From: Bacteroidales bacterium
Lineage (GTDB): Bacteria > Bacteroidota > Bacteroidia > Bacteroidales > GWA2-32-17
DNA length: 64,000 bases
NCBI GenBank assembly: GCA_026416095.1
Contig: JAOAFV010000010.1
Span: forward strand, 22,896-86,895
Direction: 5' to 3'
The position numbers and the translations under genes were made by a program. Of the stretch, positions 17,674 to 34,332 are shown in pieces. Each line of letters begins with the position of its first letter. The stretch's first letter is position 1. The notes beneath the pieces were generated by a model. The model saw nothing but the letters and a program-made list of their open reading frames with translations. It ran no database searches and was not told the DNA's origin.

Positions 17674-18434
17674 TTTTTAATGCTTTTATATATTTCGTTT
17701 ATTATCAATTTTGTATTCTGAGGGAATTCGGCGTTCATTATCCATCCTAAATATCCAGTATTTTCTCTTAATACATCTGCTACTGGTAAACCTTTATATT
17801 TACCAAAATTAAAAATAGGTTCATTATTTTCGTTGGTAATAATAAAACCATTTATATCAATAAGTTTTTTGTAATTTGTAAACTTATTGTATTCTTCAAT
17901 ATTTTCCGATAATTCCGGATATATTTGCAATTGTTGTAAAAAAATTTCAAAAGTTGCTTTAGCATCGTTTAAAGCGCGATGAGCATCTGTTAATATTTTG
18001 TTACAATAAAAATTATAAGCTGCTTCTAATGTTCGTTTTTCATAATATAAATAAATATTTCTTACATCGATAACACTAATGTTTCGATAGTTGAATTGAA
18101 TGTTACATCTTAAAAATTCTTCGACAAGAAAAGGCAAATCGAAGTTAATAATATTAAATCCGGCTAAGTCGGAATTTGCAAGTATTTCGTAAAGTTCAGA
18201 GGCAATTTCTTTAAAACGAGGTTTATTTTTTACCATTTCATTTGTTATATGGTGAATTTTTATTGTTTCTTCTGGTATTTTCTTTTCAGGGTTTATTAAG
18301 TAATTATATTCTTTTATACTTTTGTCGGGAAAAAATTTAATTAATCCTATTTCGATGATCCTATCTTTAACTATATTTAATCCTGTGGTTTCAATATCTA
18401 AGAATATGAGAGGACGTTTAAGCTTTAATTTCAT
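17670..18434 (-). CDS. DEDDh 3'-5' exonuclease (DnaQ/epsilon-like) with a C-terminal DUF3820-like tail
   Basis: 254 aa with Exo I FLDIETTGL, Exo II GFNIINFDLPFL and Exo III HRALNDA motifs. Confidence 0.8.
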   Translation of the reverse strand: MKLKLKRPLIFLDIETTGLNIVKDRIIEIGLIKFFPDKSIKEYNYLINPEKKIPEETIKIHHITNEMVKNKPRFKEIASELYEILANSDLAGFNIINFDLPFLVEEFLRCNIQFNYRNISVIDVRNIYLYYEKRTLEAAYNFYCNKILTDAHRALNDAKATFEIFLQQLQIYPELSENIEEYNKFTNYKKLIDINGFIITNENNEPIFNFGKYKGLPVADVLRENTGYLGWIMNAEFPQNTKLIINEIYKSIKK

Positions 18435-20032
18435 TTTTTTATTTGTTTTTGTTGTTGCATTATTTTCATTGTCTTTTGTGGAGTTATTTTGCTTAAGTAT
18501 ATATTTTTAAAAATTACAGATTGAATAGGTTGTTCATCGTTTATTACAATTTTTTGTGTATAAGTATTAATTTCTTTTCCTTTTATTTCTATTAACCATT
18601 CGCCGGGGGTAAATGCAAGAGTATACTTCGATTTTTTGGTTGGAGTGTAATTGTAACTTTGATTATTTTTTAAATTATAGACGGTGAAAGTTATTAATGA
18701 GTCAACCTGCCTGTAAGGTAATCCGCTTATACTATCACCAATAAATATTGTTCCAGTGTAAGCAACTGGAGTAGGAGGTACATCTTCAAAAATAACCTTA
18801 TAAATATCTAAGCCACCAACCGACGATGTGTCGTATTTACTTATAAATCCGTATCTACGATTAGAAGTTAATGATATGTTATAATTATCGTAAGTATCGT
18901 TAATTGGGTAACCTATGTTAACTGGTTCCGACCATGTTGTATCGATCTTTTTTGAAATAAATATATCGTAACCACCCATCGATTTTGGGCCATTGGAACA
19001 AAAGTATAAAGTTTTACCATCGGATGTTATGTATGGAAAATTTTCGTCGTATTGGGTGTTTATTGGTTCGCCTAAATTTACTGGTTGCGACCATTTGCCA
19101 TCGGGTAATTTCACTGAATAATAAATATCATACCCCCCTTTACCACCTATTCTATCGCTGGCAAAGTACAATGTATCACCATTATACGACAAGCTTGCAC
19201 CACATTCACGGTATTTGGTATTTATGTTAGGACCAAAATCTTTAAGTTCTCCAAAATTTCCCATTTTATTCTTTTCGCTGTAAAATAAGTCGTCTGGGTT
19301 TTTCATTCTGTTCACATGTACAAGTAATATATTGCCATCTTTACTAATGCCTGCTGCTTCTTCGTGTTCGTCGGTATTAATTTTACTGCTGGCTGCTTTG
19401 GCTACTTCCCAACCCGAAGGTGTTCGACTTGAAAAAAAAACCCCTTTAACATACTCTTGAAAGTCGCTCAAATATCTGCGATTAGATGAAAATACCATAA
19501 AATTTTCATCTTCGGTAATAAAAGGTATGTAATCATCTTGAGGCGAATTAATATTTCTACCTAAATTTATAAACTTTACATTTAATGGCTTTTGTATTAG
19601 CCTTTGTGCAGTTTTTATTTGCTCTAATAAAAGATCTACTGTAGGTAAGAATTCTTTTGCAGGATTTTCTTTTATATATTTTTTAAGTAATTCTTTAGCT
19701 TTATCGAAATTATAATTATGAAAATAAGCCTGAGCAAGATAAAAGTCAATATCTTTAAATCCTTTGGGATAAACACTATCGGCAAATAAAAGATGTTTCA
19801 AGGCCTTACTTTTATCGTAATTAGTATATAAGTAGCAAACACCTAATTTGTAATTTATTTCGGGGTTGTTAATGTATTGCTTTTTTTTGTATAATTTTAA
19901 AAATTGTTTTAAAGCAACCTCAAAATTTTCGTCTTCAAAATTTGCATTTGCATCGTAAAGTATTTCGTCTTGTGTGTATGATATCGTAAAAGAAAGACAC
20001 ATGATTATAATAAAATTAAATAATTTTATCAT
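18431..20032 (-). CDS. TPR + PD40 (TolB-like beta-propeller) repeat protein, secreted
   Basis: 533 aa with a signal peptide, N-terminal TPR-like helices, and repeated ...GGYDIY.S.....W..P.NLG..INT... PD40 units. The C-terminal beta-sandwich is CarboxypepD_reg-like. No OmpA domain. Confidence 0.65.
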   Translation of the reverse strand: MIKLFNFIIIMCLSFTISYTQDEILYDANANFEDENFEVALKQFLKLYKKKQYINNPEINYKLGVCYLYTNYDKSKALKHLLFADSVYPKGFKDIDFYLAQAYFHNYNFDKAKELLKKYIKENPAKEFLPTVDLLLEQIKTAQRLIQKPLNVKFINLGRNINSPQDDYIPFITEDENFMVFSSNRRYLSDFQEYVKGVFFSSRTPSGWEVAKAASSKINTDEHEEAAGISKDGNILLVHVNRMKNPDDLFYSEKNKMGNFGELKDFGPNINTKYRECGASLSYNGDTLYFASDRIGGKGGYDIYYSVKLPDGKWSQPVNLGEPINTQYDENFPYITSDGKTLYFCSNGPKSMGGYDIFISKKIDTTWSEPVNIGYPINDTYDNYNISLTSNRRYGFISKYDTSSVGGLDIYKVIFEDVPPTPVAYTGTIFIGDSISGLPYRQVDSLITFTVYNLKNNQSYNYTPTKKSKYTLAFTPGEWLIEIKGKEINTYTQKIVINDEQPIQSVIFKNIYLSKITPQKTMKIMQQQKQIKK

Positions 20033-20036
20033 AAGT

Positions 20037-21605
20037 TTATTTTTTTATTTTAAGATAAAATTTTTTTTCAATTTCTTTGACAAAATTGCTTCTGTCGAGA
20101 ATAATTATTTTTTCAGTATATAGATTACATATTGGTGAATATATTTTAATAGTATATTCTGCAGGAGGTAAGGCCGCTATAAATCTAAATAAGTTATAGT
20201 TATAAGCATATATACCATATACGTTTGAATAATTGTCGTATATTGTAATTTCTACATTACCGAGAGTAGGTTTCCATGGTATAGTATCTTTATCGGTAAT
20301 TAAATAAATTTGTCCTTTTAAAATAGTAACAGGTGAGTTTTCGTTGTTAAAAATAATTTTATATATATCTGTACCACCAAAGCCTTCTTTTCTTACAGAT
20401 GCTACATAGGCATATTTTTTTGTAGGTGAAAAGCATATTGAATAATCGGCCCCTGGAGTGTTTATAGGGTATCCTAAATTTTCGGGTTTATTCCATGTAT
20501 TTTTTTCGTCGTTATAAGTAGTTTTAAAAATATCGTAATCGCCAATAGATTTGTGTCCTTTACTTGCAAAGTATAATGTTTTACCATCGGGCGATATTTG
20601 AGGGTATATTTCATCTTCTGGAGTATTTATTGTATTACCAAGATTTTGTGGCTGACTCCATTCACCATTTGGCAATTTTTTTATGACATAAATGTCGTTT
20701 TTGCCGTACGAGTCGTTTCGTTCGGCTGAAAAATAAAGAGTTTGTCCATCGGCTGTAATTGTAGCTCCAGTAGTAAATTTATTTGCGTACTTTGAAAAAA
20801 ATTTTTCTCCTTCAATATATTTGTAATTAACTCTATTTTTAGTAAGGGCAATATTTACATCGCTGTAAACTCTTCCATAATGACCGCAAACAAACAAAGT
20901 ATCGCCATTTGTACTCATTCCTACAACTTTTTCTGGATCTTGTGTATTAAGGCCAGAAACTGGCATGCATTTTTTCCATCCAAGTCCATCGGGAAATGAT
21001 ATATAAATATTTTCATCAAAGTTCATTGAATTATGATCAAAACTTTTATCGGAAGTAAAAATTAAAAAATCTTCATTATATGGTGTAAAAGGTAAAATTT
21101 CGTTCGAAGAACTATTAATATTAGCACCAAGATTCTCAAAAGTCACATTTAACGGCTTATTGAGCAAATCGAGTGCATTTAAACAATTTTCAATTAGCTT
21201 TTGTGCTTCTTCAATATTTTTTTGGGAAATACCAGAACTTGCAATATATGTATTAAACATATCAATTGCATCGTTAAATCTGTATGAATGCATATACATT
21301 TTGCCTATCCAGAAAGGTACATCGGAAAAGTTGTGATTTTTACCAAGTAAGGGTTCAATGTATTTTAATGAAGTATCTATATTAAAACCTGCAAGAAAAT
21401 TAGAAATAGCAAACCTATATTTATAAAAAAAATTGTTAGGGTCAAGTTTTATTAGTTTTTCATATTCTTGTTTTGAAAGCTTATAATTTTCGTTTGCCCA
21501 ATGACGTTCAGCAATTTTTTCTAATTCTTTAATGCCTTCGGCGTGTTGTGAGAATATAGTGTTGCAATTATAAATTAACAATAAAAAAACAACGATCGCA
21601 ATCAT
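20037..21605 (-). CDS. TPR + PD40 repeat protein, paralog of the 18431..20032 gene
   Basis: 522 aa with the same architecture and collinear motifs (LNKPLNV.FENLG.NINS, GKTLYF.S, DIY..). Confidence 0.65.
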   Translation of the reverse strand: MIAIVVFLLLIYNCNTIFSQHAEGIKELEKIAERHWANENYKLSKQEYEKLIKLDPNNFFYKYRFAISNFLAGFNIDTSLKYIEPLLGKNHNFSDVPFWIGKMYMHSYRFNDAIDMFNTYIASSGISQKNIEEAQKLIENCLNALDLLNKPLNVTFENLGANINSSSNEILPFTPYNEDFLIFTSDKSFDHNSMNFDENIYISFPDGLGWKKCMPVSGLNTQDPEKVVGMSTNGDTLFVCGHYGRVYSDVNIALTKNRVNYKYIEGEKFFSKYANKFTTGATITADGQTLYFSAERNDSYGKNDIYVIKKLPNGEWSQPQNLGNTINTPEDEIYPQISPDGKTLYFASKGHKSIGDYDIFKTTYNDEKNTWNKPENLGYPINTPGADYSICFSPTKKYAYVASVRKEGFGGTDIYKIIFNNENSPVTILKGQIYLITDKDTIPWKPTLGNVEITIYDNYSNVYGIYAYNYNLFRFIAALPPAEYTIKIYSPICNLYTEKIIILDRSNFVKEIEKKFYLKIKK

Positions 21606-22403: not shown

Positions 22404-23402
22404 TTATTGTGGGTTATATCCCCATTTTAAATACATAGCTCCCCAAGTAAATCCAGCACCAAAAGCAGCTAAAATAATATTATCTCCCTTATTTAGCTTA
22501 TTTTCCCATTCAAATAAGCAAATAGGTAGTGTTGCAGCTGTGGTATTTCCGTACTTTTGAATATTAATCATTACTTTTTCTTTAGATATACCCATTCTAT
22601 TAGCAGTTGCTTCTATAATACGCATATTTGCTTGATGGGGGACAAGCCAAGCCACATCTTCGGGTTTAAGATTATTTCTTTTCATTATTTCAACGCTACA
22701 ATCGGCCATTTTTGTAACTGCCCATTTAAAAACTGCTTGTCCTTCTTGATAGATATAGTGAAGACGATTAGCAACTGTTTCAAAAGAAGCTGGACGTAGA
22801 GAACCGCCTGCTTTTTGGTGAAGATGTACTCTACCTATTCCATCTGAACCAAATATTTCGTCAATTATACCAATATTTTCGGTAGTTGGTTCTAATAATA
22901 CAGCACCTGCACCATCGCCAAATATAGGGCATGTAGTACGGTCGGTATAATCGACTATTGTCGACATTTTCTCGGCACCAATGATAATTGCCTTTTTATA
23001 TTTACCGCTCTCTATGAATTTTGCACCTGTTGACAATGCATATAGAAAACCGCTACAACCTGCATTAATATCGTAACTGAATGCATTTCTTATGTTGACT
23101 TTATCGCTTATAATATTTGCGGTTGCTGGAAATTGCGTATCTGGTGTAACAGTTGCACAAATAACTAAATCAATTTCTGCTGGGTCAGTATTTGTTTTTT
23201 TTAGTAACTTATTAACAGCATCGGCACCTAAGTCGCTTGTTGCTTTATTTTTATCTCTTAAAATTCTTCTTTCTTTAATTCCTATTCTTTCCATTATCCA
23301 TTCATCGCTTGTGTCTACCATTTCCGATAATTCTTCATTAGTCAACCTATATTCTGGAATGCTTATTTCTACGCCTTTTATATATGCGTTAATTTTACTC
23401 AT
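22404..23402 (-). CDS. fabH: beta-ketoacyl-ACP synthase III
   Basis: 332 aa. Active-site Cys context NAGCSGFLYAL, HQAN, GNTTAATLP. Confidence 0.95.
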   Translation of the reverse strand: MSKINAYIKGVEISIPEYRLTNEELSEMVDTSDEWIMERIGIKERRILRDKNKATSDLGADAVNKLLKKTNTDPAEIDLVICATVTPDTQFPATANIISDKVNIRNAFSYDINAGCSGFLYALSTGAKFIESGKYKKAIIIGAEKMSTIVDYTDRTTCPIFGDGAGAVLLEPTTENIGIIDEIFGSDGIGRVHLHQKAGGSLRPASFETVANRLHYIYQEGQAVFKWAVTKMADCSVEIMKRNNLKPEDVAWLVPHQANMRIIEATANRMGISKEKVMINIQKYGNTTAATLPICLFEWENKLNKGDNIILAAFGAGFTWGAMYLKWGYNPQ

Positions 23403-24337
23403 ATTGCATTTTCTTTTGTTTTTAAATGTTCAATTAAATTCGATTTAACTATATTGTAAGTTAATAAAATCATGTTTTTAATTGCTAAAGGGGTTGAGGC
23501 TCCATGTCCAACCACAACAACTTTGTTTATTCCTAAAATGGGAGTTCCGCCATAATATTCGAAGTTAAACTTTTCAAAGTAACTATCAACCATGTTTCTT
23601 CTTTTTAACATCTTGTAAAAACCTTCGCCTAATTTTAGTATAACATTTCCAGTAAACCCATCGCATATTATTACATCACATATATTTGAAAATATGTCGT
23701 AGCCTTCGATATTTCCAATAAAATTAATTTTTGGATCGTTTTTTAATAAATCATATGCAATTTTTGTAACAGAATTTCCTTTTTCTGGTTCTGATCCAAT
23801 ATTAAGAAGAGCAACACGAGGTTTTTCGACACCAACAATATATTTAAAATATTTACTTGTTAAATGGGCATATTGAAGCAACATTTCAGGTTTTGCATCG
23901 GGGTTTAAACCGACATCTGCAATTAATGAAAAGGAATTATTTTCGTGTGGAATAAACGAAGCAATGCAAGGCCTTATGATACCATCTATTACTTTGATTA
24001 TTTGCATAGCACCAACTAGCATTGCCCCTGTATTTCCAGCACTACAAAATCCCTGTATATAATCGGCTTGTAAGTATTTAAAACCCTGTACAATAGATGA
24101 ATTTTGTTTTTGAGTAAAAGCATTGGCAGGAGTGTCTTCCATTGTTATAACTTCAGGGGCATCAATTATTTCAATTTGCTTTAATTCGTGGCTTCTAAAA
24201 TTTTCTTCAATTATTTTTTTGTTACCAAATAAAACTAACTCTAAATCGGAAGGTTTGTCGTTCATTAATAATTTTACTCCTTCAATAGGATTTTTGGGGA
24301 CATAATCTCCTCCCCAAATGTCAATTCCTACTTTCAT
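23399..24337 (-). CDS. plsX: phosphate acyltransferase
   Basis: 312 aa. GGD..P N-terminus, VVVGHGAS motif, and the conserved rpmF-plsX-fabH order. Confidence 0.9.
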   Translation of the reverse strand: MKVGIDIWGGDYVPKNPIEGVKLLMNDKPSDLELVLFGNKKIIEENFRSHELKQIEIIDAPEVITMEDTPANAFTQKQNSSIVQGFKYLQADYIQGFCSAGNTGAMLVGAMQIIKVIDGIIRPCIASFIPHENNSFSLIADVGLNPDAKPEMLLQYAHLTSKYFKYIVGVEKPRVALLNIGSEPEKGNSVTKIAYDLLKNDPKINFIGNIEGYDIFSNICDVIICDGFTGNVILKLGEGFYKMLKRRNMVDSYFEKFNFEYYGGTPILGINKVVVVGHGASTPLAIKNMILLTYNIVKSNLIEHLKTKENAI

Positions 24338-24567: not shown

Positions 24568-25131
24568 TTAATTTAATAACTTTTTTAATTCTTCACATTT
24601 AAGACTGAAAGTGATATTATTTTCTTCTTTTAAATAAGAACTTAAAATTTTAAGAGTTTCTTCGTTGCACAAAGAATTCCCTTTTTCGTCGTATTCATGC
24701 ACGTGGCGCATTGGAATTGAAAATATTACAGCTTCAAAAATTAAAGGTGAAACATCTATTTCGGTTGTATTCGAAGGAATAAAAATTATATCTGTTCCTT
24801 CTTCTTTAGGATTATCGGATAATTGTATAAATAAATGATGTGTAAAATTTATGGGCATTAATAAATCATCGTTACATCTATCGCAAACGGTGAGAATTGT
24901 ACCTTCTATATTAAATGTTAAATCGAATAAATCGTTATTTTTTATGAGTGTTAAACATACGTCTAAGTTAACATCGTTAATGTTTTCGTAAACAAAGTCG
25001 CTGAAAAAGCTTTTGTTAATTTTATACAAGTATTTATATTCAGCATTTTTTAAAGACTTAATATTAATAATATATTCATCAGAAAAGTTCACAAAAATTT
25101 TTTGCAAAAGTATAAAAAAAAATAAAAACAA
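24568..25131 (-). CDS. yceD: YceD/DUF177 family protein
   Basis: Lies immediately upstream of rpmF as in most bacteria, with a CDRC...C.E cluster. The ORF-track start is a TTG. An in-frame GTG at 25092 (MNFSDEYII..) is an equally plausible start. Confidence 0.7.
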   Translation of the reverse strand: MFLFFFILLQKIFVNFSDEYIINIKSLKNAEYKYLYKINKSFFSDFVYENINDVNLDVCLTLIKNNDLFDLTFNIEGTILTVCDRCNDDLLMPINFTHHLFIQLSDNPKEEGTDIIFIPSNTTEIDVSPLIFEAVIFSIPMRHVHEYDEKGNSLCNEETLKILSSYLKEENNITFSLKCEELKKLLN

Positions 25132-25181: not shown

Positions 25182-27083
25182 ATGGTTATGAGTAATTTTA
25201 TTTTATCGAAATTTTATTTTTACTCCGGACCAAATTATTATTTAAATAAAAAAGCTTTTGTTTTTAACTTATTTGTAAATAAACATACTCAATTAGAGAA
25301 AATATATGATGTTGTAACAAAGCGTTTTAAAAAGATTAGAGATTATAAAATTTATGATATTGCAGATTTTTTTGCTGTTACATTACTCAATGTATTAAAA
25401 ATGGATGTTGATTTGTATATTAATGATTATGAAATTTCTTATGATGGCGATGAATATGTAATTGCATTGGAATATTTCGATAAATCAATTAGTAAAGACT
25501 GTGCTTTTCTTGTAAGCGACTGGTTTAAAGCAATAGAAAATAATGTAGATTTTAATTTTGAAGAGAGGTACGAAAAAATTAAGCAAAGATTTAATAAAAC
25601 ATTGTATGGTGGTCCTACTTTGTATTCCATTGTAGAAGCAGCATTAAAGCACCAAATACCACTTTTTTACATATATGAAGAAAATACATTTCAATGGGGG
25701 TACGGAAGAAGACAATTAAGGGGCAAGTCGGCATTGTTTCACACAGATAGTATAAAAGATGCAGAATTTACAATGTACAAAGACATGGTCGGTGAGTTTT
25801 TAGAAATGTGTAACTTCCCAGTCCCTAAATCTATTACTTGTTTTACAGAAAAAGAAGTAGTTAAAGCTGCAGAAGAAATTGGTTTCCCTGTTATTATTAA
25901 GCCTGTGGTTGATCAAAGAAAACAGACAACAATAGCAAAATTGTCGTCGATAGAAGAAGTTAAAAATTGTTTTAATAATATATTAAAAACATTTAATGAT
26001 CAAAACACAATTTTCGATGGGGTTTTAGTACAAAAATATATTAAAGGCGTCGATTACCGACTTTTAACAATAGATGGTAAATTTGTTGCTGCTACAAAAA
26101 GAATACCAGCATATATTGTGGGCGATGGCAAAAGTACTATAAAAGAACTTATTGATAAGGAAAACGAAAAAATAATAAGAGCCGATAACTTGCGCTCGCC
26201 ATTATGTAAAATAAAAATTGATGACAAGCTAGTACAATACCTTTCACAACAAAATCTTACTTTAGAGTCGGTAATTGAGAAAGATAAAACTGTTTATTTA
26301 AGGAGCGAAGCAAGTATCTCAGAAGGAGGTATTTCTATAAATGTAACAGATAGCGTCCACCCCGACAATATAAAGCTAGTAGAAAATATTGCTAAATTTT
26401 TTAAGGTAAAATGTCTTGGAATAGATATTCTTACTTCCGATATTTCAGTGTCGTGGCAAAAAGGCAATTTTGTAATTCTTGAAATAAATTCAAATCCAGG
26501 CATTTTTATGCATTTTGTGCCAGCTTTTGGCGAAAAAATAGATGTGCCAAAAAAAATTTTATTTTCACATTTTTCTCAAAAAGATAAAGGTAGAATACCA
26601 ATAGTTGTATTCAATTATATTAATAAATCGTTTGCTAAAGACTTAGTCGATGAACTAATTTATGAATATAACGATGTTTTTATAGGATGCCTTATACAAG
26701 AAGGAATATTTTTTAATAATGAATATTTTAGCAAGAAATTAGAACACGATCAGGCAGTCAAAATAATTTTAAGGCACCCCGATGTAAATATTGCAATTTT
26801 TGAGCATTCTAAAGATGATATTTATGATTATGGTATTTTTCATCAAGGTGCTGATATAATTGTACTTGATGAACCAGCATATGCCGAAGAAAGAGTTTTA
26901 TCGAAACAAGTAATGGATGGAAGTATATTAATATATGCACAAAGTGGTAAAATTAATGTATATTCGTCAAACGATGATGTACTTGATACTTACGAGTACT
27001 TTTCTACACGAGAAAAGGAACAAATTATTAAAAAAATTATACGCGACGAAATGGAATATTACTTAAAAAAATATGATGTTTAA
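25182..27083 (+). CDS. cyanophycin synthetase-like protein, truncated (CphA2-like: N domain + ATP-grasp G domain + short degenerate Mur-ligase-like remnant)
   Basis: 633 aa. ATP-grasp region matches CphA (DYRLLTIDGKFVAATKRIPAYIVGDGKSTIKELID; LRSEASISEGGISINVTD..HPDN; ILEINSNPG). The segment after aa ~465 aligns to the start of the CphA M domain but ends about 250 aa early. See findings for the degenerate loops. Confidence 0.7.
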   Translation: MVMSNFILSKFYFYSGPNYYLNKKAFVFNLFVNKHTQLEKIYDVVTKRFKKIRDYKIYDIADFFAVTLLNVLKMDVDLYINDYEISYDGDEYVIALEYFDKSISKDCAFLVSDWFKAIENNVDFNFEERYEKIKQRFNKTLYGGPTLYSIVEAALKHQIPLFYIYEENTFQWGYGRRQLRGKSALFHTDSIKDAEFTMYKDMVGEFLEMCNFPVPKSITCFTEKEVVKAAEEIGFPVIIKPVVDQRKQTTIAKLSSIEEVKNCFNNILKTFNDQNTIFDGVLVQKYIKGVDYRLLTIDGKFVAATKRIPAYIVGDGKSTIKELIDKENEKIIRADNLRSPLCKIKIDDKLVQYLSQQNLTLESVIEKDKTVYLRSEASISEGGISINVTDSVHPDNIKLVENIAKFFKVKCLGIDILTSDISVSWQKGNFVILEINSNPGIFMHFVPAFGEKIDVPKKILFSHFSQKDKGRIPIVVFNYINKSFAKDLVDELIYEYNDVFIGCLIQEGIFFNNEYFSKKLEHDQAVKIILRHPDVNIAIFEHSKDDIYDYGIFHQGADIIVLDEPAYAEERVLSKQVMDGSILIYAQSGKINVYSSNDDVLDTYEYFSTREKEQIIKKIIRDEMEYYLKKYDV

Positions 27084-27094
27084 ATATTTGTTAT

Positions 27095-28264
27095 ATGAAT
27101 GCTATTTTAATTAAGGGGGCAGAAGTATATGCACCCAAATACATAGGCAAAAAGGATATTTTTATTGTAGACAAAAAGATTGTTAAAGTAGCTGAAAATA
27201 TTAATGCTCCTTCAATTTTTAATTGTACAGTAATTGATGCCGACGGTTTAACTGCTATTCCTGGTTTTATCGACAGCCATGTTCACATTGCTGGAGCAGG
27301 GGGAGAAGGAGGGCCCGCAACAAGAACTCCTGAACTTCCTTTATCTAAGTATATTGAAGCTGGAGTTACAACTGTTATAGGTTGTTTGGGTACCGATGGT
27401 ATGACTCGAAACGTTGAATCGGTGCTAATGAGAGCAAAGGCACTAAGAAACGAAGGAATTTCGGCATGGATTTATACCGGTGCATATCAGGTACCTACTC
27501 CAACAATAACTGGCGATGTTGGTAAAGACATTGCTTTAATAGATGAAATTATTGGAGTTGGCGAAATTGCTTTAAGCGATCACAGGTCTTCATGGCCTTC
27601 ACCTTACGAATTATTACGATTAACAGAACATGCAAGAGTAGGTGGTATGCTCGGAGGTAAAGCAGGTATTGTAAACATACACTTAGGCGATCAATACAAT
27701 CCGTTTCAACCACTTTACGAAGTAATTGAGCTCAGTAAGAATATGCTTAAGTTAACTCAGTTTTTACCTACTCATTGCAACCGAAACGATTATACGTTTG
27801 ACTCAGCCATAGAATACCTTAAAAAAGGTGGTTATATCGATATAACAACAAGTTCTTACCCATATTTTCCTGAATATGAGGTAAAGCCTTCAAAATGTTT
27901 AAAGATATTAATTGATAATAATATAGGTATTGACAATGTAACATTTAGTTCTGATGCTGGTGGCTCTCTTCCTGGTTTTGATGATAAAGGTAATTTGATT
28001 AAACTTGAAATGGGATTACCTTTTGCTAATTTTAAAGAAATAATCGATGCTGTCAAGGAAGAAAAAATTCCATTGGAAGAAGCTCTTAAAGTTGTAACTG
28101 TAAATCCTGCTCGAATACTTAAATTACATAATAAGGGTAAAATTGAAGAAAGTTATGATGCAGATATTATACTTATCGATAATTTTAGTATACATTCCGT
28201 TATTGCTAATGGTGTATTTCTAATGAAAGAAAGAAGATTGGTAAAAAAAGGTAATTACGAATAA
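27095..28264 (+). CDS. iadA: isoaspartyl (beta-aspartyl) dipeptidase
   Basis: 389 aa with GFIDSHVHIAGAGGEGGPATRTPE, and an amidohydrolase fold with SSDAGGS. Confidence 0.85.
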   Translation: MNAILIKGAEVYAPKYIGKKDIFIVDKKIVKVAENINAPSIFNCTVIDADGLTAIPGFIDSHVHIAGAGGEGGPATRTPELPLSKYIEAGVTTVIGCLGTDGMTRNVESVLMRAKALRNEGISAWIYTGAYQVPTPTITGDVGKDIALIDEIIGVGEIALSDHRSSWPSPYELLRLTEHARVGGMLGGKAGIVNIHLGDQYNPFQPLYEVIELSKNMLKLTQFLPTHCNRNDYTFDSAIEYLKKGGYIDITTSSYPYFPEYEVKPSKCLKILIDNNIGIDNVTFSSDAGGSLPGFDDKGNLIKLEMGLPFANFKEIIDAVKEEKIPLEEALKVVTVNPARILKLHNKGKIEESYDADIILIDNFSIHSVIANGVFLMKERRLVKKGNYE

Positions 28265-28306
28265 ATTAATAATATTGTTTAGGTAAATTTTGATATAGGT
28301 GATTAT

Positions 28307-29560
28307 ATGTTTATATACAAATTTGGTGGGGCTTCGTTAAAAGACTCCGAAGGTATTAAAACTGTAGGTAAGATTATAAAAAGAAATGCTAAAGAAGGAC
28401 TTGTTATTGTTATTTCGGCAATGGGTAAAACAACAAATGCTTTAGAAATTGTTCACAAATATTATTTAAGTGGCGATAAAAACAACTGTAAAGCACATAT
28501 AGAAACTATTAAAATGTACCATTTAAATCTTATAGGTGAAATATTTTCGGAAAAAAATAATATCTGTCGAAAAATTAATAATTACTTTTTAGAAATAGAA
28601 GAGATAACTAATAAGGAACCTTCATTAAATCCTGACTTCGAATACGATAAAATAGTTTCTTATGGCGAATTAATATCTTCTACGATAATATCGGAGTACT
28701 TAAAATCTATTGACGTAGAAAACGAATGGGTAGACATTAGAGAATATTTAATAACCGACGATTTTTTTCGCGAAGCAAATATCAATTTTGCTCTTTCGGA
28801 AAAATTAATTTGTGGTAAGTTTAAATCAAATAAAATTTTTGTTACTCAGGGTTTTATTGGAGGCACAATAACCAAACTTACTACAACTCTTGGCCGCGAA
28901 GGTTCAGATTATACAGCAGCACTACTAGGTTACTTCTTAAATGCCGAATCGGTAACAATTTGGAAAGATGTTCCCGGCATCTTAACTGCCGATCCTAAAA
29001 TTATGAATAACTACACTCAAATAAAAAAACTCTCTTACGAAGAAGCTATTGAACTTGCTTATTATGGAGCACAAGTTATACATCCACGAACTATTAAGCC
29101 ACTCCAAAACAAAAATATACCACTTTATGTTAAACCTTTCTATAACGAAGAAGAAACAGGCACCGAAATTTCATGCTGCCAAAATCAAAATAAATTACCC
29201 CCTATATTCATTCATAAATTTAACCAGTGTATTATTAATATTACTTCAAAAGATTTTTCTTTTATTGTCGAAGAAAATATTAAATACATTTTCACTTTAT
29301 TGTGTAAACACAAGTTAAAAACAAATCTATTACAGCAATCTGCAATATCAATATCTTTATGCGTTGATTACGACGAACGAAAAGTGTATAGTTTTACAAA
29401 AGAATTGGAAAATAGTTTTACAATTAAAATTGAAACCAACCTTACTTTGTTGACTATTCGACATTATACCTTAAAAGTGCTAGCAGAACAAGTAAACTCG
29501 AACAATGTAATTTTGGAAGATATAAATCGCTATGTAGCTAAACTTGTAATTAAAAATTAA
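28307..29560 (+). CDS. lysC: aspartate kinase (monofunctional)
   Basis: 417 aa with YKFGGASL, VISAMGKTTNAL, LGREGSDYTAA, and C-terminal ACT-like region. Confidence 0.85.
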   Translation: MFIYKFGGASLKDSEGIKTVGKIIKRNAKEGLVIVISAMGKTTNALEIVHKYYLSGDKNNCKAHIETIKMYHLNLIGEIFSEKNNICRKINNYFLEIEEITNKEPSLNPDFEYDKIVSYGELISSTIISEYLKSIDVENEWVDIREYLITDDFFREANINFALSEKLICGKFKSNKIFVTQGFIGGTITKLTTTLGREGSDYTAALLGYFLNAESVTIWKDVPGILTADPKIMNNYTQIKKLSYEEAIELAYYGAQVIHPRTIKPLQNKNIPLYVKPFYNEEETGTEISCCQNQNKLPPIFIHKFNQCIINITSKDFSFIVEENIKYIFTLLCKHKLKTNLLQQSAISISLCVDYDERKVYSFTKELENSFTIKIETNLTLLTIRHYTLKVLAEQVNSNNVILEDINRYVAKLVIKN

Positions 29561-30608
29561 TAAAAGTAATAGTACGGGGTATAATACCCACAATTTTCTT
29601 ATCAATCAGTTGCCGATTATTATTATAAATTAGAATTTCACCGTTGGTAACATAATCTTTAGCATCGGTTACAACTATATATTTATTGTTAGGATGTATA
29701 TTTAACGAATAAAAATTCTTACTTTCACCATTTATAAAAAAACTATTAGGCACAACTGTGTCGTATATGGAAATTTTATATATATGCTTGTTAATAAAAT
29801 AAATACTATCGCAACTTGGATTTATACATAATGAACGTGCCGAAGCCGATTTATCTTTTAAAATAAAGGTTTTTAATATCTTATTATTTTTACTATCTAT
29901 TTTATGAAGAGTTGGAAACTCATGTCCTATAGGATTACCTTCGTAACCACCATCGCACAAAACCCATATGTTACTATCTTTATCGCTTACTATGCTATTA
30001 GGTTGTAATCCAACGGTTATACTGTCTATTAGTAATTTGGTATTTGTATCAAAAACATAAACCTTATTATTAAACGACCAACTTGTTGCATATACTTTAT
30101 TATTGAGTTTAATCATTGCTTCAATACATCGTGGTGTGTTAATTGTAGAAGCAATAGTATTATTTTTTGTATTAATTACGTAAATACATTTGTTATATAA
30201 GTCGCTAACCCAAATAGTATTTTTATCGATAGGAACGATATAGCGTGGCGAAACCAAATTTTTTATTGAAGCTTTATATTTCATTGTAAAAGGATCGGTT
30301 ATTTGAATTAAACCAGAATTATTCACTACTATGTAACAATTTGTATCTATTATTTTCAAATCCATTCCAACATCGCCTAAAGGTATTTTATTTGCTCTAT
30401 AAAATACATCATTTTCTACTTCTCTTTTTACTTCGTCGTAAAAACTTATTGAACTATTGCCCCAAGTAAAGTTACCTTCGTTGACTATATAAAACCCCTT
30501 TTTAAAATTAAAGGTTTCCTTAAAATTTTCTTTTTCATCTTTTCTGCATCTAAAATGAAAAATTATTACATAAAAAATAAATACACCTATTATTACTTTA
30601 CTTTTCAT
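29550..30608 (-). CDS. YncE/BtuG-like beta-propeller protein, last gene of the B12-riboswitch operon
   Basis: 352 aa. Repeated blade-like units (..IWV.D.., ..VYVF.., ..IWVLCDG..) and an N-terminal signal segment ending FHFRC followed by RKDEKE. Immediately downstream of a BtuB-size TonB-dependent receptor. Confidence 0.55.
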   Translation of the reverse strand: MKSKVIIGVFIFYVIIFHFRCRKDEKENFKETFNFKKGFYIVNEGNFTWGNSSISFYDEVKREVENDVFYRANKIPLGDVGMDLKIIDTNCYIVVNNSGLIQITDPFTMKYKASIKNLVSPRYIVPIDKNTIWVSDLYNKCIYVINTKNNTIASTINTPRCIEAMIKLNNKVYATSWSFNNKVYVFDTNTKLLIDSITVGLQPNSIVSDKDSNIWVLCDGGYEGNPIGHEFPTLHKIDSKNNKILKTFILKDKSASARSLCINPSCDSIYFINKHIYKISIYDTVVPNSFFINGESKNFYSLNIHPNNKYIVVTDAKDYVTNGEILIYNNNRQLIDKKIVGIIPRTITFINF

Positions 30609-30614
30609 AATAGT

Positions 30615-32471
30615 TTATTTATAAACTAAAGTAAACCCAAATTCAAAGTATCTACGAGGATAAGCTCTCCATAACATACTACTGTATTGTTTATTAGTTA
30701 AGTTAATTACTTTGAAAAGAATTCTGACAAACGTTTTCTCGTTAATTTTAATGTCTTTTTCAATATCAATATCAATTAATAACATTGCTGGTAATACGTA
30801 ATGTTCAGTGTATGCAAACGGAAAACGTTTATCGTAAAATGTAAGTTTATTGCCAATATTAAAATTATTATTGATTAAAAACGTTGTCCTATTTGTAAAG
30901 GTTATAAATGGAATATAAGGATTATGAATTATTTTAGTATTACCATCGTTGCCAGATATTCGATTTATTGTAATTAAAAATTCGTTTAAGATATTAATTC
31001 TTTTTCTGTGAAAGGAATTAATAAGATTTAAAGAAGCTCCATGTAATGTTGCATTTCTAACATTATCAGCTTTCCAGTAGCCAAATATTGTTGGTTGCCA
31101 CAAAATCCAGTCGAAAAGCCTTTTGTAAAAACTTGTTAATTTTAAAGATGGTAATTTTATATTTGAACTAGAAAAATCTATGCCACCTTCAATTGTAAAA
31201 CATTTTTCAGGTTTTAAATTTTCGTTACCTCCGGGTTTGAAATACAATTCATTAAGTGTTGGGAATCTAGTATTATTGCCTATTGATACAAAGTAAGAAA
31301 ATTGCGATCGTATTCTTTCAAATGATAGTCTATTATTACAGTAAAATTTATGTTTATGCTTTGTAATATTTATTGTGTGAATTATATTGTGGTTCTCTAG
31401 TTCTAAATTGTGTGTTATGCCAAATTTTGGTATGTTAGTAAATGATTTTTGTTTGTTAAATATTCCATAATTATATATGTTATTTAAATTCATTTTGAAA
31501 GATGATTTTTTAACATTGAAATTTAATTTAAACGAAAAATTATTAGAAATCGAATACCAGCTTGAAGAGATATTAGTAACAATTTTTTCGTTAAAAAAAT
31601 GAATTAAAGAATAATTTGCTTTGTTTATATTTATTCCTTCTAATAAAGAGAATTGAAATTTGTCACTTATGTAAAAATATTCTAATGAACTTATGAAATT
31701 TTTTAAATTTTGTGTTTCATTAGAATTATTGTTAACATTTAAAATTATTGGCTGAAAGTTCAATTCGTGTATTGAAAATAAGTTATTAAACTTAATTTTA
31801 CTAAAATTCTTGGAGTACATAAAAAAGTTGCTATAACTCAATCGTTTTGAAGGTTCGTTAATTTTTTGTTCGATAGGTGGTATAAAATAATTATTAACTA
31901 TTTTAAATCTATTTTTATTAAAGTTACAGCTTATAGTATGCGAAGTTTTAAGTTTTTCTTTTTTTAGTGATTTATTTATCAAAAAACAGTTATTTTGAAT
32001 TGTTTGGTAAGAATATTTAAAAATTGTTTTATTTTCAATGTTTTCGTCGCTATTAATACTTATGGTACCACCGAAAGCACTACTACTAATATTTAGTGAA
32101 GAAATACCATAATGAATTGAATAATTATTATCGGGAGCAATTAAAATTGAAGATATATCTACCATTCCATTAAAAGGAGAATTTATTAGAATATTGTTCC
32201 AGTATACTTCTGTATGAGAAGGAGAAGTTCCTCTTATCTGAAGAATTTGATTGTTTAAACTATAAGTTTTTATTATCACGTCGGCATTATTTGCCAAAAT
32301 ATTGCTTATAGAATTTCCATAAGATTTATGAATATCTGTTTTTTTTATCTTATGAGTACAAAATTTATTTATACTATCTGTGACATCGATTTGTTTAAGC
32401 ATAATCACTTGTTGGCAAGGTAAATAATAAACAATAAAAAGAAATATTGAAATAATAATTAGTAAATGCAT
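30615..32471 (-). CDS. TonB-dependent outer-membrane receptor, BtuB-like size class
   Basis: 618 aa. Signal peptide, plug-like region (IRGTSPSHTEVYWNNILINSP), and a long run of alternating beta-strand-like sequence. It has no SusC-type N-terminal extension and lies behind a cobalamin riboswitch. Confidence 0.75.
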   Translation of the reverse strand: MHLLIIISIFLFIVYYLPCQQVIMLKQIDVTDSINKFCTHKIKKTDIHKSYGNSISNILANNADVIIKTYSLNNQILQIRGTSPSHTEVYWNNILINSPFNGMVDISSILIAPDNNYSIHYGISSLNISSSAFGGTISINSDENIENKTIFKYSYQTIQNNCFLINKSLKKEKLKTSHTISCNFNKNRFKIVNNYFIPPIEQKINEPSKRLSYSNFFMYSKNFSKIKFNNLFSIHELNFQPIILNVNNNSNETQNLKNFISSLEYFYISDKFQFSLLEGININKANYSLIHFFNEKIVTNISSSWYSISNNFSFKLNFNVKKSSFKMNLNNIYNYGIFNKQKSFTNIPKFGITHNLELENHNIIHTINITKHKHKFYCNNRLSFERIRSQFSYFVSIGNNTRFPTLNELYFKPGGNENLKPEKCFTIEGGIDFSSSNIKLPSLKLTSFYKRLFDWILWQPTIFGYWKADNVRNATLHGASLNLINSFHRKRINILNEFLITINRISGNDGNTKIIHNPYIPFITFTNRTTFLINNNFNIGNKLTFYDKRFPFAYTEHYVLPAMLLIDIDIEKDIKINEKTFVRILFKVINLTNKQYSSMLWRAYPRRYFEFGFTLVYK

Positions 32472-33379
32472 ATTCTAAAATGATTAAGAGTGTTATTTTT
32501 CTCATGTTTAATGATATAAATACCTGGTGGATAACTTAAAAAAATTTCTTTTACATTGTAATACTTATTGATTTCTTGGCCATTAATATTAAAAATGGTT
32601 AAATTGCAATAGCTATCTAAGTATAATGTTTTATTATAAAATATAAAATTAATGTTATCATTATAATCGTTGAGCTCATTAATAACAGCAATAGCATCAA
32701 GATCAAAGCCACCAGTTTCAAATGGAGTAGGGTAGGGATCGTTTATAATATTTCCCTTTGAATCGTACGAACGTGAACTACAATCAATACAACCAACAAC
32801 ATCTATTATTTTTACGTAATTTATCTTATTCTTATTTAGATATGGGGAATGGGGTAACTCATCAATATCGAACAATGTACCATACAATGCTTTATATTTC
32901 CCAGCAAGATTATATATTTTGTTTGGATCAATATAACCAAATGTACCAACTTGAAAATTTGTTTGAGTCAAAGATATTGAAGGAAATCTAAACCAATTAA
33001 TACTATCGGTACTAACTTCTACGTGAGCAAGTTCTAAAAAACTGTCTACAAAGGCATTTTCGAATATTGCAAAATCGTAACCTATTCCGTTTCTAATAGG
33101 TTTATTAAACTTACATACTGCTATACCACTATCGCCAAGTGAAACTACAATGTTGTCGGCTTTATAAGTTGCATTATTTTCGTTACCCCAAGTTGTATGT
33201 CCAGTATTTTTATTTGATATGTCCTTGTAGCCGCGTTGAACATAACATTTTGTAGCCCAACTTTTAATTCGGCTATCTTGATAAAATATATAATCATTAT
33301 TTAAAAACTGACATTCACCTTCATAAATTACAATGAATAAAATTATTATAATTTTAATATTTTTTCTTGATAAGTGCAT
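32459..33379 (-). CDS. secreted protein with T9SS type-A C-terminal sorting domain, function unknown
   Basis: 306 aa with a signal peptide. Central GYDFAIFENAF...VEVSTDSINW motif. C-terminal about 70 aa (LTIFNINGQEI...PGIYIIKHE) is CTD-like. Confidence 0.55.
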   Translation of the reverse strand: MHLSRKNIKIIIILFIVIYEGECQFLNNDYIFYQDSRIKSWATKCYVQRGYKDISNKNTGHTTWGNENNATYKADNIVVSLGDSGIAVCKFNKPIRNGIGYDFAIFENAFVDSFLELAHVEVSTDSINWFRFPSISLTQTNFQVGTFGYIDPNKIYNLAGKYKALYGTLFDIDELPHSPYLNKNKINYVKIIDVVGCIDCSSRSYDSKGNIINDPYPTPFETGGFDLDAIAVINELNDYNDNINFIFYNKTLYLDSYCNLTIFNINGQEINKYYNVKEIFLSYPPGIYIIKHEKNNTLNHFRICIY

Positions 33380-34332
33380 TCTTTTGCTATAAGTTTAATA
33401 ATGTATACACCAGATTTTAATTCCGATAAAGATATTTTATTTGTAGGATTGTTTATATCTTTAACAAGTCTAAAAAAATTATCGAAAATTTGTACATGAT
33501 CGATATTATCGGGTATAAATAAATAGTTATATGTGGGATTGGGAAATAATTTTACTTTATTCTGGCTAATTAGTTTAATATTATTGTTTTTAGGAATAAA
33601 CTGAATATTGTCGAAGCAAAAGTATGCGGGAGTATTCATGCCATATTGTCCTGTGTCGCTCGATGCGAGTTTGAATTTAAGTTTAGTTATTGTTCCTAAA
33701 CTTGTAAGATCTATGTTTTGCCATTCTTTTACAATATAATCAGAATCGTTATTGGCAAATCTATAGTCGGCAAGATAAAATTCAATCTCACCAGTTTTTA
33801 ATGTGTCGAAGAAACCTTCGATTATTAATTTGAACCAGTCGGGGTCGTTACCAGTTACTCCTCCAAACGGTTTACAAAAAAAGTCGCCATTCTTTATTGT
33901 AAGAGCTGTATAAGTTGTATTAGTTACCTTAATTGAAATAGGAACAATCGAATCGTAATAAGGTTTGAAGTCTATAACATTAGGTACAATTTCAAAGTTA
34001 CTAAAATCTATATTATTGTACGAAATACCGAATATTGTTGATTGTTCTACTTGTTGCCCTGCAAATGTACTATATTGGTTATTTAAGTTTTGAAAAGTAT
34101 CGTCGATCATATTTGAATAAGCAAAACCGTACCACGATGTTATTCCTCCACCCCAATCGGTAAAAGTATTTGGAAAAAAAACATTGTTAGAAATAAAACC
34201 TCCACTATTATCGGAGCCATTCCAATAAGAATTTTCGAGTAATATTAAATCTTCAAAATTAATAATTTCATACTGTGAAGTTGCATTAAGACATAAAAAA
34301 ATAACAATGCTTGAAATAAAAAACTTTTTCAT
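33346..34332 (-). CDS. secreted protein (possibly DUF4465-like) with T9SS type-A C-terminal sorting domain; first gene after the riboswitch
   Basis: 328 aa with a signal peptide. C-terminus LFPNPTYNYLFI...VQIFDNFFRLV...LKSGVYIIKL is a typical T9SS CTD. The DUF4465 assignment is from memory of the family and is unverified. Confidence 0.55.
   Translation of the reverse strand: MKKFFISSIVIFLCLNATSQYEIINFEDLILLENSYWNGSDNSGGFISNNVFFPNTFTDWGGGITSWYGFAYSNMIDDTFQNLNNQYSTFAGQQVEQSTIFGISYNNIDFSNFEIVPNVIDFKPYYDSIVPISIKVTNTTYTALTIKNGDFFCKPFGGVTGNDPDWFKLIIEGFFDTLKTGEIEFYLADYRFANNDSDYIVKEWQNIDLTSLGTITKLKFKLASSDTGQYGMNTPAYFCFDNIQFIPKNNNIKLISQNKVKLFPNPTYNYLFIPDNIDHVQIFDNFFRLVKDINNPTNKISLSELKSGVYIIKLIAKECTYQEKILKL

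Follow-up and report, generated by a model that had tools for sequence, protein, structure and literature searches.

A CphA2-type cyanophycin synthetase gene of a Bacteroidales genome that has lost the glycine-rich lid loop of its ATP-grasp domain

Cyanophycin is a bacterial nitrogen-storage polymer, and the cyanophycin synthetase CphA2 re-polymerises its dipeptides. The G domain is the sole catalytic domain of CphA2; in the characterised enzymes, its single active site phosphorylates the C-terminal carboxylate of cyanophycin with ATP and then adds beta-Asp-Arg. The M domain of CphA2 is truncated and inactive (PMC10273328). A phosphate-binding lid loop of the G domain, P-loopG (TeCphA1 residues 263–269), has been assigned a critical catalytic role: the loop shifts onto the gamma-phosphate and, through His267, stabilises the acyl-phosphate, and the H267A substitution reduces the activity of both TeCphA1 and SuCphA1 (Miyakawa 2022, PMC9427784). 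CphA2 is described in the literature as a cyanobacteria-only enzyme, and cyanobacterial CphA2 is stated to occur in genomes that also encode CphA1 and cyanophycinase (PMC9974463). Here we analysed a gene for a 633-amino-acid (aa) CphA-like protein in a 64,000-nucleotide (nt) stretch of a Bacteroidales metagenome-assembled genome (MAG; assembly GCA_026416095.1, contig JAOAFV010000010.1, positions 22,896 to 86,895), referred to below as the window. The gene is followed by iadA, for isoaspartyl dipeptidase, and by a lysC-type aspartokinase gene (Table 1). Its product proved to be a CphA2-type protein in which the glycines of P-loopG have been replaced, so that this CphA2-type orthologue lacks one catalytic hallmark of the family.

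Sequence match, fold match and phylogeny concurred in placing the window protein with CphA2 and not with CphA1, in agreement with the CphA2-like identity proposed in a preliminary description made from the sequence alone. The best phmmer match in the PDB was the CphA2 of Gloeothece citriformis (GcCphA2, 7ta5; E=3e-142, query aa 5–598, target 8–596 of 629), followed by the CphA2 of Stanieria (StCphA2, 8fxh, 642 aa; E=1e-127, query aa 13–618); CphA1 structures aligned to aa 142–561 only. An AlphaFold2 model of the protein (mean predicted local distance difference test score 79, predicted template modelling score 0.73) was least confident at residues 182–201, 244–251 and 438–453, which are active-site loops, and Foldseek ranked the CphA2 entries 7ta5 and 8fxi first, then CphA1, then GshF. 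A neighbour-joining tree of aa 142–561, the region held in common with CphA1, placed a non-cyanobacterial clade as sister to the Gloeothece and Stanieria enzymes and well apart from 12 CphA1s, with the window protein as a long branch at the base of the clade; the tree is a distance method without support values. Generic ATP-grasp models were the only Pfam matches, and scores for TIGR02068 (337 bits, cutoff 850; model positions ~75–570 of ~870 covered) and NF010623 (340 bits, cutoff 877) fell below those expected of CphA1. The NCBI record of the product (MCX7953904.1, 631 aa) is labelled ‘acetate--CoA ligase family protein’.

The short M domain is unexceptional in this setting. At the site of the Mur-ligase P-loop, where CphA1 has RIPILAVTGTNGKTT, the window protein reads RIPIVVFNYINK, GcCphA2 reads RMPIITFNYLPK and StCphA2 reads RIPIITFNRVSI; the Bacteroidales relatives read RIPIIAGNxIS, and none of 80 related loci matched GxNGK[TS]. 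The 633-aa length and the absent Mur-ligase P-loop are therefore ordinary CphA2 architecture and not extra degeneration. The preliminary description had spoken of a truncated CphA-like gene; the 633-aa product is confirmed, and TIGR02068 is matched only in part, but the word truncated misleads, the length being normal for CphA2 (629 aa in 7ta5, 642 aa in 8fxh). It had also singled out VFNYINKSF (aa 476–484, nt 26607–26633) at the M-domain P-loop; the reading stands, but the feature is a trait of the CphA2 family and no peculiarity of this gene. An assembly-truncated CphA1 was ruled out by the full-length CphA2 match and by the start of iadA 11 nt past the cphA2 stop codon.

To place the G-domain loop among relatives, we drew on a protein search (932 clusters at E ≤ 1e-20, with 119 homologues fetched) and on a species-representative genome collection (140 confirmed loci, 80 of which underlie the locus counts given here). 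The window loop, IIKPVVDQRKQTT (aa 238–250, nt 25893–25931), aligned without gaps and was flanked by conserved residues on both sides. Following the conserved KP, relatives read V-A-G-H-K-G-x-G-V-T-T or a close three-Gly variant, and the window protein reads V-V-D-Q-R-K-Q-T-T-I-A; the corresponding segments are KPLDGNHGRG in CphA1, KPV(A/I)GHKGxG in CphA2 and KPVVDQRKQTT in the window. The changes are G244D, H245Q, K246R, G247K, G249T, V250T and T252A, of which G244D, G247K and G249T abolish the G-x-x-G-x-G pattern that marks an intact P-loopG. Among solved enzymes, GcCphA2 and StCphA2 have GHKGIG and SuCphA1 has GNHGRG. The positions of G244 and G247 are invariant across solved CphA1 and CphA2 structures, and they are Gly in 10 of the 11 CphA1-like proteins encoded next to CphA2-type genes in related loci. 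The glycine loop was intact in 119/119 fetched homologues, in 80/80 genome loci and in all CphA2-type metagenome copies that span it. Of the 49 loci that a protein-seeded metagenome scan yielded, none exceeded 54% identity and none had a CphA2-type copy whose loop was degenerate, and a back-translated pattern of the degenerate loop had 0 matches in metagenome contigs. The Gly loop of the G domain has truly been lost, and this state is unique to the window among the CphA2-type sequences compared.

The loss had been reported in the preliminary description and withstood each of the checks applied to it: the Gly loop is not offset, the protein does not group with CphA1, and its shortness is no artefact of frameshift or assembly. 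It is scarcely credible that about 12 codons of a normal cphA2 were scrambled, be it through an error of sequencing, assembly or binning or through a compensated frameshift, even though the gene comes from a single MAG contig with no independent copy. The other two reading frames of nt 25875–25967 contain stops and no Gly-rich peptide, which rules out a compensated frameshift at the loop. The loop codons also differ from those of the five closest loci (L001–L005) by many separate in-frame point substitutions, the conserved-site deviations are scattered through aa 150–441, and the flanking genes are syntenic with those of relatives.

Other active-site positions have changed as well. G211N removes a Gly that is universal in its ATP-grasp motif, G438N affects a residue whose StCphA2 equivalent contacts the polymer through its backbone carbonyl, and T184A and T194A lie near the polymer-binding strand. 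Position 378, a large-loop Asn in 80/80 family members and in the Gc, St and Su enzymes, is Ser in the window protein; in StCphA2, the N393A substitution at this position abolishes activity (PMC10273328). The segment DYRLL, listed among retained elements in the preliminary description, is not a strictly kept motif, as the non-cyanobacterial family has H at the Y position.

We compared the extent of change in CphA2 and in the adjacent IadA, with 35 genomes in which both genes occur serving as the matched control. At columns invariant in these 35 relatives, window CphA2 deviated at 19 of 117 and window IadA at 3 of 102 (Fisher p=0.0012), and by the same measure other taxa reached a maximum of 5 (median 0) for CphA2 and a maximum of 6 for IadA. 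Conserved Gly columns were lost at 10 of 30 positions in window CphA2 and at 2 of 33 in window IadA. Measured against the 80-member family, the window protein deviated at 1 of 6 conserved columns in the N domain, 0 of 8 in the M domain and 22 of 114 in the whole G domain; within G the deviating columns comprised 6/35, 2/8 and 4/33 in the three Gcore segments, 8/14 in Glid and 2/24 in Gomega. One 13-residue stretch holds seven deviations (permutation p=0.0014). Per-domain relative-rate ratios were partly confounded by saturation of the N and M domains, and the invariant-column test was relied on instead; synonymous sites were saturated because the nearest relatives are at 53–57% amino-acid identity. 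In a regression of CphA2 identity on IadA identity, the CphA2 residual was only about −6 points, so the signal resides in which residues changed and not in a dramatic overall rate. The erosion is gene-specific, G-domain-selective and centred on the active site. The window has 28.5% G+C and the closest related loci 32–39%. AT pressure or genome-wide fast evolution was considered and rejected as the whole explanation, given that IadA is unchanged at 99 of its 102 invariant columns and at 31 of its 33 conserved Gly.

Judging from the pattern of substitutions, we give about an even chance to the interpretation that the window gene encodes a CphA2 relic or a pseudoenzyme with impaired catalysis. 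What it has kept is the CphA2 fold, intact N and M domains and the core residues that handle ATP/Mg and the acyl phosphate. Such a protein can probably still fold, and binding of nucleotide or polymer may persist, with polymerase activity probably lost for the most part or wholly, and the co-transcribed IadA would remain a working enzyme that converts beta-aspartyl dipeptides to Asp. A possible cause would be dispensability, whether through cyanophycinase/CphA1 or a second intact paralogue, such as nine related MAGs have, or through loss of the cyanophycin partners.

Several observations weigh against an impaired enzyme. The 1.9-kb open reading frame is intact though a random stop would be expected about every 12 codons, and 98 of the 117 invariant positions are unchanged, suggesting that much of the protein is under purifying selection. 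As would be expected of an active enzyme, the ATP phosphate lysines K200 and K240 (Te K220, K261), the arginines R293 and R307 (Te R309, R323), the Mg ligands D415, E434 and N436 (Te D431, E450, N452) and the oxyanion residue G440 (Te G456) are all present; the probability that 11 such core residues were spared by chance is estimated at p ~0.15. The cyanophycin-contact residues P145 and T146 are also kept, as are D347, R374 and S380 of the large loop (St D362, R389, S395). The new lid loop keeps two basic residues, R246 and K247, as possible phosphate contacts. Five of the 11 neighbouring CphA1-like proteins also have Ser at the position of S378, and N378S alone is therefore not decisive. Window IadA is ~70% identical to the closest clade, against 86–94% within that clade, indicating that the window lineage is faster overall and that part of the excess of changes in CphA2 is a general rate effect. 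Finally, the window lineage is represented by a single sequence.

Some of these features would also be expected of an active CphA2 whose remodelled lid loop closes over ATP, with R246 and K247 replacing the backbone amides and the Lys/His of the normal loop; the cphA2–iadA pair would then partition beta-Asp-Arg between re-polymerisation and hydrolysis, as in relatives. We regard this as possible, though on the doubtful side. The intact frame, the retention of 84% of family-invariant residues and of every core catalytic and Mg-ligand residue, the presence of three of the four large-loop residues found important by mutagenesis, the preserved operon link with an intact iadA and the CphA2 fold of the AlphaFold2 model all speak for an active enzyme, but they have to be set against glycines that are present in all >200 CphA2-type sequences and in every solved CphA1 and CphA2, in a loop described as catalytically critical (PMC9427784), and against the additional losses at G211, N378 and G438.

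The clustering of substitutions round the active site (the permutation result given above), together with N and M domains at family-normal conservation, would suit a neofunctionalised ATP-grasp ligase or binding protein that acts on a new substrate, or that senses or sequesters beta-aspartyl peptides beside IadA and the aspartokinase. On this view, the shift in role would be reflected in the altered lid loop, in N378S of the loop for the incoming substrate, and in T184A and T194A. Plain loss of catalytic constraint likewise gives active-site clustering, however; no second sequence with the new state conserved was present in the collections searched, and the protein has acquired neither a new motif nor a new domain. 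We consider neofunctionalisation decidedly unlikely. It is also unlikely that the gene encodes a selected CphA2-derived pseudoenzyme, which would bind cyanophycin or beta-aspartyl dipeptides, or scaffold or regulate IadA, or else the first lid-loop-free ATP-grasp peptide ligase of the family. The fates named in the preliminary description, namely a divergent CphA2, a pseudoenzyme or an enzyme with a different substrate, remain an apt list of candidates.

The genomic context of relatives identifies the process to which the gene belongs. In 37 of 80 loci, among them all of the closest (L001–L005), the cphA2-type gene is immediately followed by iadA, and a cyanophycinase gene lies directly upstream in 29 of 80 (TIGR02069, 211 bits, cutoff 127). 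A CphA1-like gene whose product is 25–28% identical adjoins cphA2–iadA in 11 loci, and the one scanned scored 805 bits against TIGR02068. The usual arrangement in relatives is a cyanophycin-turnover operon, cphB–cphA2–iadA(–cphA1), which indicates that the underlying module serves cyanophycin turnover and not aspartate metabolism, contrary to the aspartate/beta-aspartyl-dipeptide module suggested in the preliminary description. The conserved part of the gene cluster proposed there is the link between cphA2 and iadA; lysC adjoins this pair in 0 of 36 relatives that have it, and membership of lysC in a conserved module was ruled out, the adjacency being specific to the window. This new, lineage-unique neighbour would fit a neofunctionalised protein, but it could be an accident of rearrangement. 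On the other side of the gene, order is conserved: L002 and L003 have in common with the window a fabH–plsX–yceD cluster on the opposite strand, divergent from cphA2–iadA, an equivalence judged without scoring from open reading frame sizes (~333, 311 and 172–191 aa) and N-terminal sequences. The same order of fabH–plsX–yceD and cphA2–iadA makes the window gene the positional orthologue of the intact L002 and L003 copies.

No cyanophycinase, CphA1 or second cphA was detected in the 64-kb window by tblastn with 29 cyanophycinases and 5 CphA1 sequences, in line with the earlier remark that the window lacks a cyanophycinase. With both the substrate supplier (cyanophycinase) and the primer maker (CphA1) not found in the window, an active CphA2 is harder to accommodate. 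The closest clade resembles the window in this respect: no cyanophycinase adjoins cphA2 in L002, L003 or L005, and in L001 and L004 cphA2 is situated at the contig end, with its upstream side beyond the sequence.

Degeneracy of G-domain P-loops was also seen, in part, in the CphA1-like genes that adjoin CphA2-type genes. An Acidobacteriota copy (L073:13479-16121, +) reads KPRERHMRKGV, with two Gly lost, and several copies, mostly on Bacteroidota-labelled contigs, read G-Y-x-G-K-[SRN], with the third Gly lost; besides L073, the loci concerned are L033:532-3174, L060:10442-13111 and L074:12297-14525, and the CphA1-like neighbours in L090, L096 and L126. Constraint on the G domain of a CphA1 that is paired with CphA2 may be relaxed or altered.

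Genes assigned to the CphA2 type by sequence are widely distributed beyond cyanobacteria, which runs counter to published statements; a literature search found no description of a non-cyanobacterial CphA2. The preliminary description had likewise placed CphA2 mainly in cyanobacteria, a view that gave way to hundreds of CphA2-type genes in Bacteroidales and other phyla. The named protein clusters are overwhelmingly from MAGs of Bacteroidales/Bacteroidota and 630–700 aa long. Non-Bacteroidota loci carry the MAG labels Phycisphaerales, Acidobacteriota/Holophagae/Thermoanaerobaculia, Cloacimonadota, Muiribacteriota, Chlorobiota/Kapaibacteria and Desulfobacterales. With the 49 metagenome loci included, the genes span Bacteroidota, Planctomycetota, Acidobacteriota, Cloacimonadota, Muiribacteriota and others. 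Apart from the identical MCX7953904.1, the closest homologue of the window protein is 57% identical, and no close relative of the window lineage was present in the protein, species-representative genome or metagenome collections searched, so that sampling of the lineage is poor.

Nine MAGs have two CphA2-type paralogues (for example L001/L015, L002/L020, L012/L041, L005/L063 and L064/L013). The first is ~630 aa long and directly followed by iadA; the second is ~670 aa long, with an N-terminal extension, is not accompanied by iadA and is often preceded by a gene for a ~450-aa coiled-coil protein. Both paralogues retain P-loopG.

Within the window, iadA begins 11 nt past the cphA2 stop and lysC begins 42 nt past iadA. 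Counts from a promoter scan equalled the shuffled expectation, the scan models being ones that do not cover Bacteroidota promoters. The 64-kb window is densely coding and has no tRNA genes. Beyond lysC lies a four-gene operon on the opposite strand, headed by a cobalamin riboswitch and encoding products of 328, 306, 618 and 352 aa; the 618-aa product resembles a TonB-dependent receptor by eye, the last gene is convergent with lysC with an 11-nt overlap, and the operon is probably a B12-regulated uptake locus. Elsewhere in the window, tandem paralogues of 533 and 522 aa have, by eye, an N-terminal TPR-like region and a repeated ‘DGxTLYFxS...GxxDIY’ motif resembling a TolB/PD40-type beta-propeller.

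Table 1. Features of the cphA2-type locus and its surroundings (nucleotide positions are those of the window)
Feature	Residues	Position (nt)	Strand	Remarks
cphA2-type gene		25182..27083	+	633-aa open reading frame
N domain	1-141	25182..25604	+	mapped by alignment from StCphA2 N domain 1-158 (PMC10273328)
G domain (ATP-grasp)	142-471	25605..26594	+	carries the lineage-specific erosion
P-loopG (phosphate-binding lid loop) remnant	240-252	25899..25937	+	KPVVDQRKQTTIA replaces KPVAGHKGQGVTT
S378	378	26313..26315	+	large-loop Asn position (StCphA2 N393, TeCphA1 N394)
M-domain remnant	472-633	26595..27080	+	short, catalytically silent, normal for CphA2; aligns to the end of solved CphA2s
Former Mur-ligase P-loop site		26592..26627	+	RIPIVVFNYINK; family trait
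iadA, isoaspartyl (beta-aspartyl) dipeptidase		27095..28264	+	389 aa; TIGR01975 489.4 bits, cutoff 331.25, aa 5-389
lysC-type aspartokinase		28307..29560	+	417 aa; TIGR00657 271 bits, cutoff 208.7; PF00696 E=4e-42
fabH		22404-23402	-	divergent from cphA2
plsX		23399-24337	-	divergent from cphA2
yceD		24568-25131	-	divergent from cphA2; YceD = PF02620
Cobalamin riboswitch RF00174		34410-34614	-	110 bits; upstream of the four-gene operon
Four-gene operon		34332..29550	-	
Tandem paralogue 1		18431-20032	-	533 aa
Tandem paralogue 2		20037-21605	-	522 aa

With the fold and the ATP/Mg ligands of CphA2 kept and the lid P-loop lost, the window protein offers a natural test of the role of this loop in acyl-phosphate chemistry, and the gene may exemplify the formation of a pseudoenzyme, or gene decay, caught midway. 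The conserved iadA neighbour bears on which dipeptidase completes cyanophycin degradation in Bacteroidota, a question raised previously (PMC10206079). If the non-cyanobacterial CphA2-type enzymes are dipeptide polymerases, cyanophycin recycling would be common in anaerobic sediment and digester bacteria, and this operon family is probably a more useful lead for specialists than the singleton gene.

Set beside known systems, the window protein is closest in architecture to the CphA2 enzymes of G. citriformis (7ta5) and Stanieria sp. (8fxh/8fxi), which have the same N–G–truncated-M layout, length and fold, are 36–39% identical to it over the full length and have likewise lost the M-domain P-loop. 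These enzymes keep GHKGIG where the window protein has DQRKQT, and have the essential large-loop Asn where it has Ser; I191 and E195 of the window protein, in place of H208 and D212 of cyanobacterial CphA2, are traits of the non-cyanobacterial clade. Unlike cyanobacterial CphA2, the window gene has a Bacteroidales host and stands beside iadA, and neither cphA1 nor cphB is in view. CphA1 (TIGR02068; 7lg5, 7wac) has a homologous G domain and M-domain start (aa 142–561, ~31% identity), and its G domain carries out the same ATP-grasp chemistry as that of the CphA2 type; it is, however, ~870–900 aa long, its M domain is an active Mur ligase (GTNGKTT), and its N domain differs in sequence from that of the window protein. 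The ATP-grasp module of GshF/GshAB (3ln6, 3ln7) has the same fold and motif set (E=5e-26), a homology at the level of the domain only, since GshF has neither the N domain nor the M remnant, and its P-loop is intact. Nearest of all is the non-cyanobacterial CphA2-type family, whose proteins are labelled either ‘cyanophycin synthetase’ or ‘acetate--CoA ligase family protein’ and members of which (for example L001–L004) are 53–57% identical to the window protein and have iadA directly downstream. Many of these relatives have a cyanophycinase gene upstream or a CphA1 gene nearby, neither of which was seen in the window or the closest clade, and KPVAGHKGQGVTT is present throughout the family, as are the remaining conserved residues of the G domain, whereas the window protein departs from the family at 19 of the 117 columns that are otherwise invariant.

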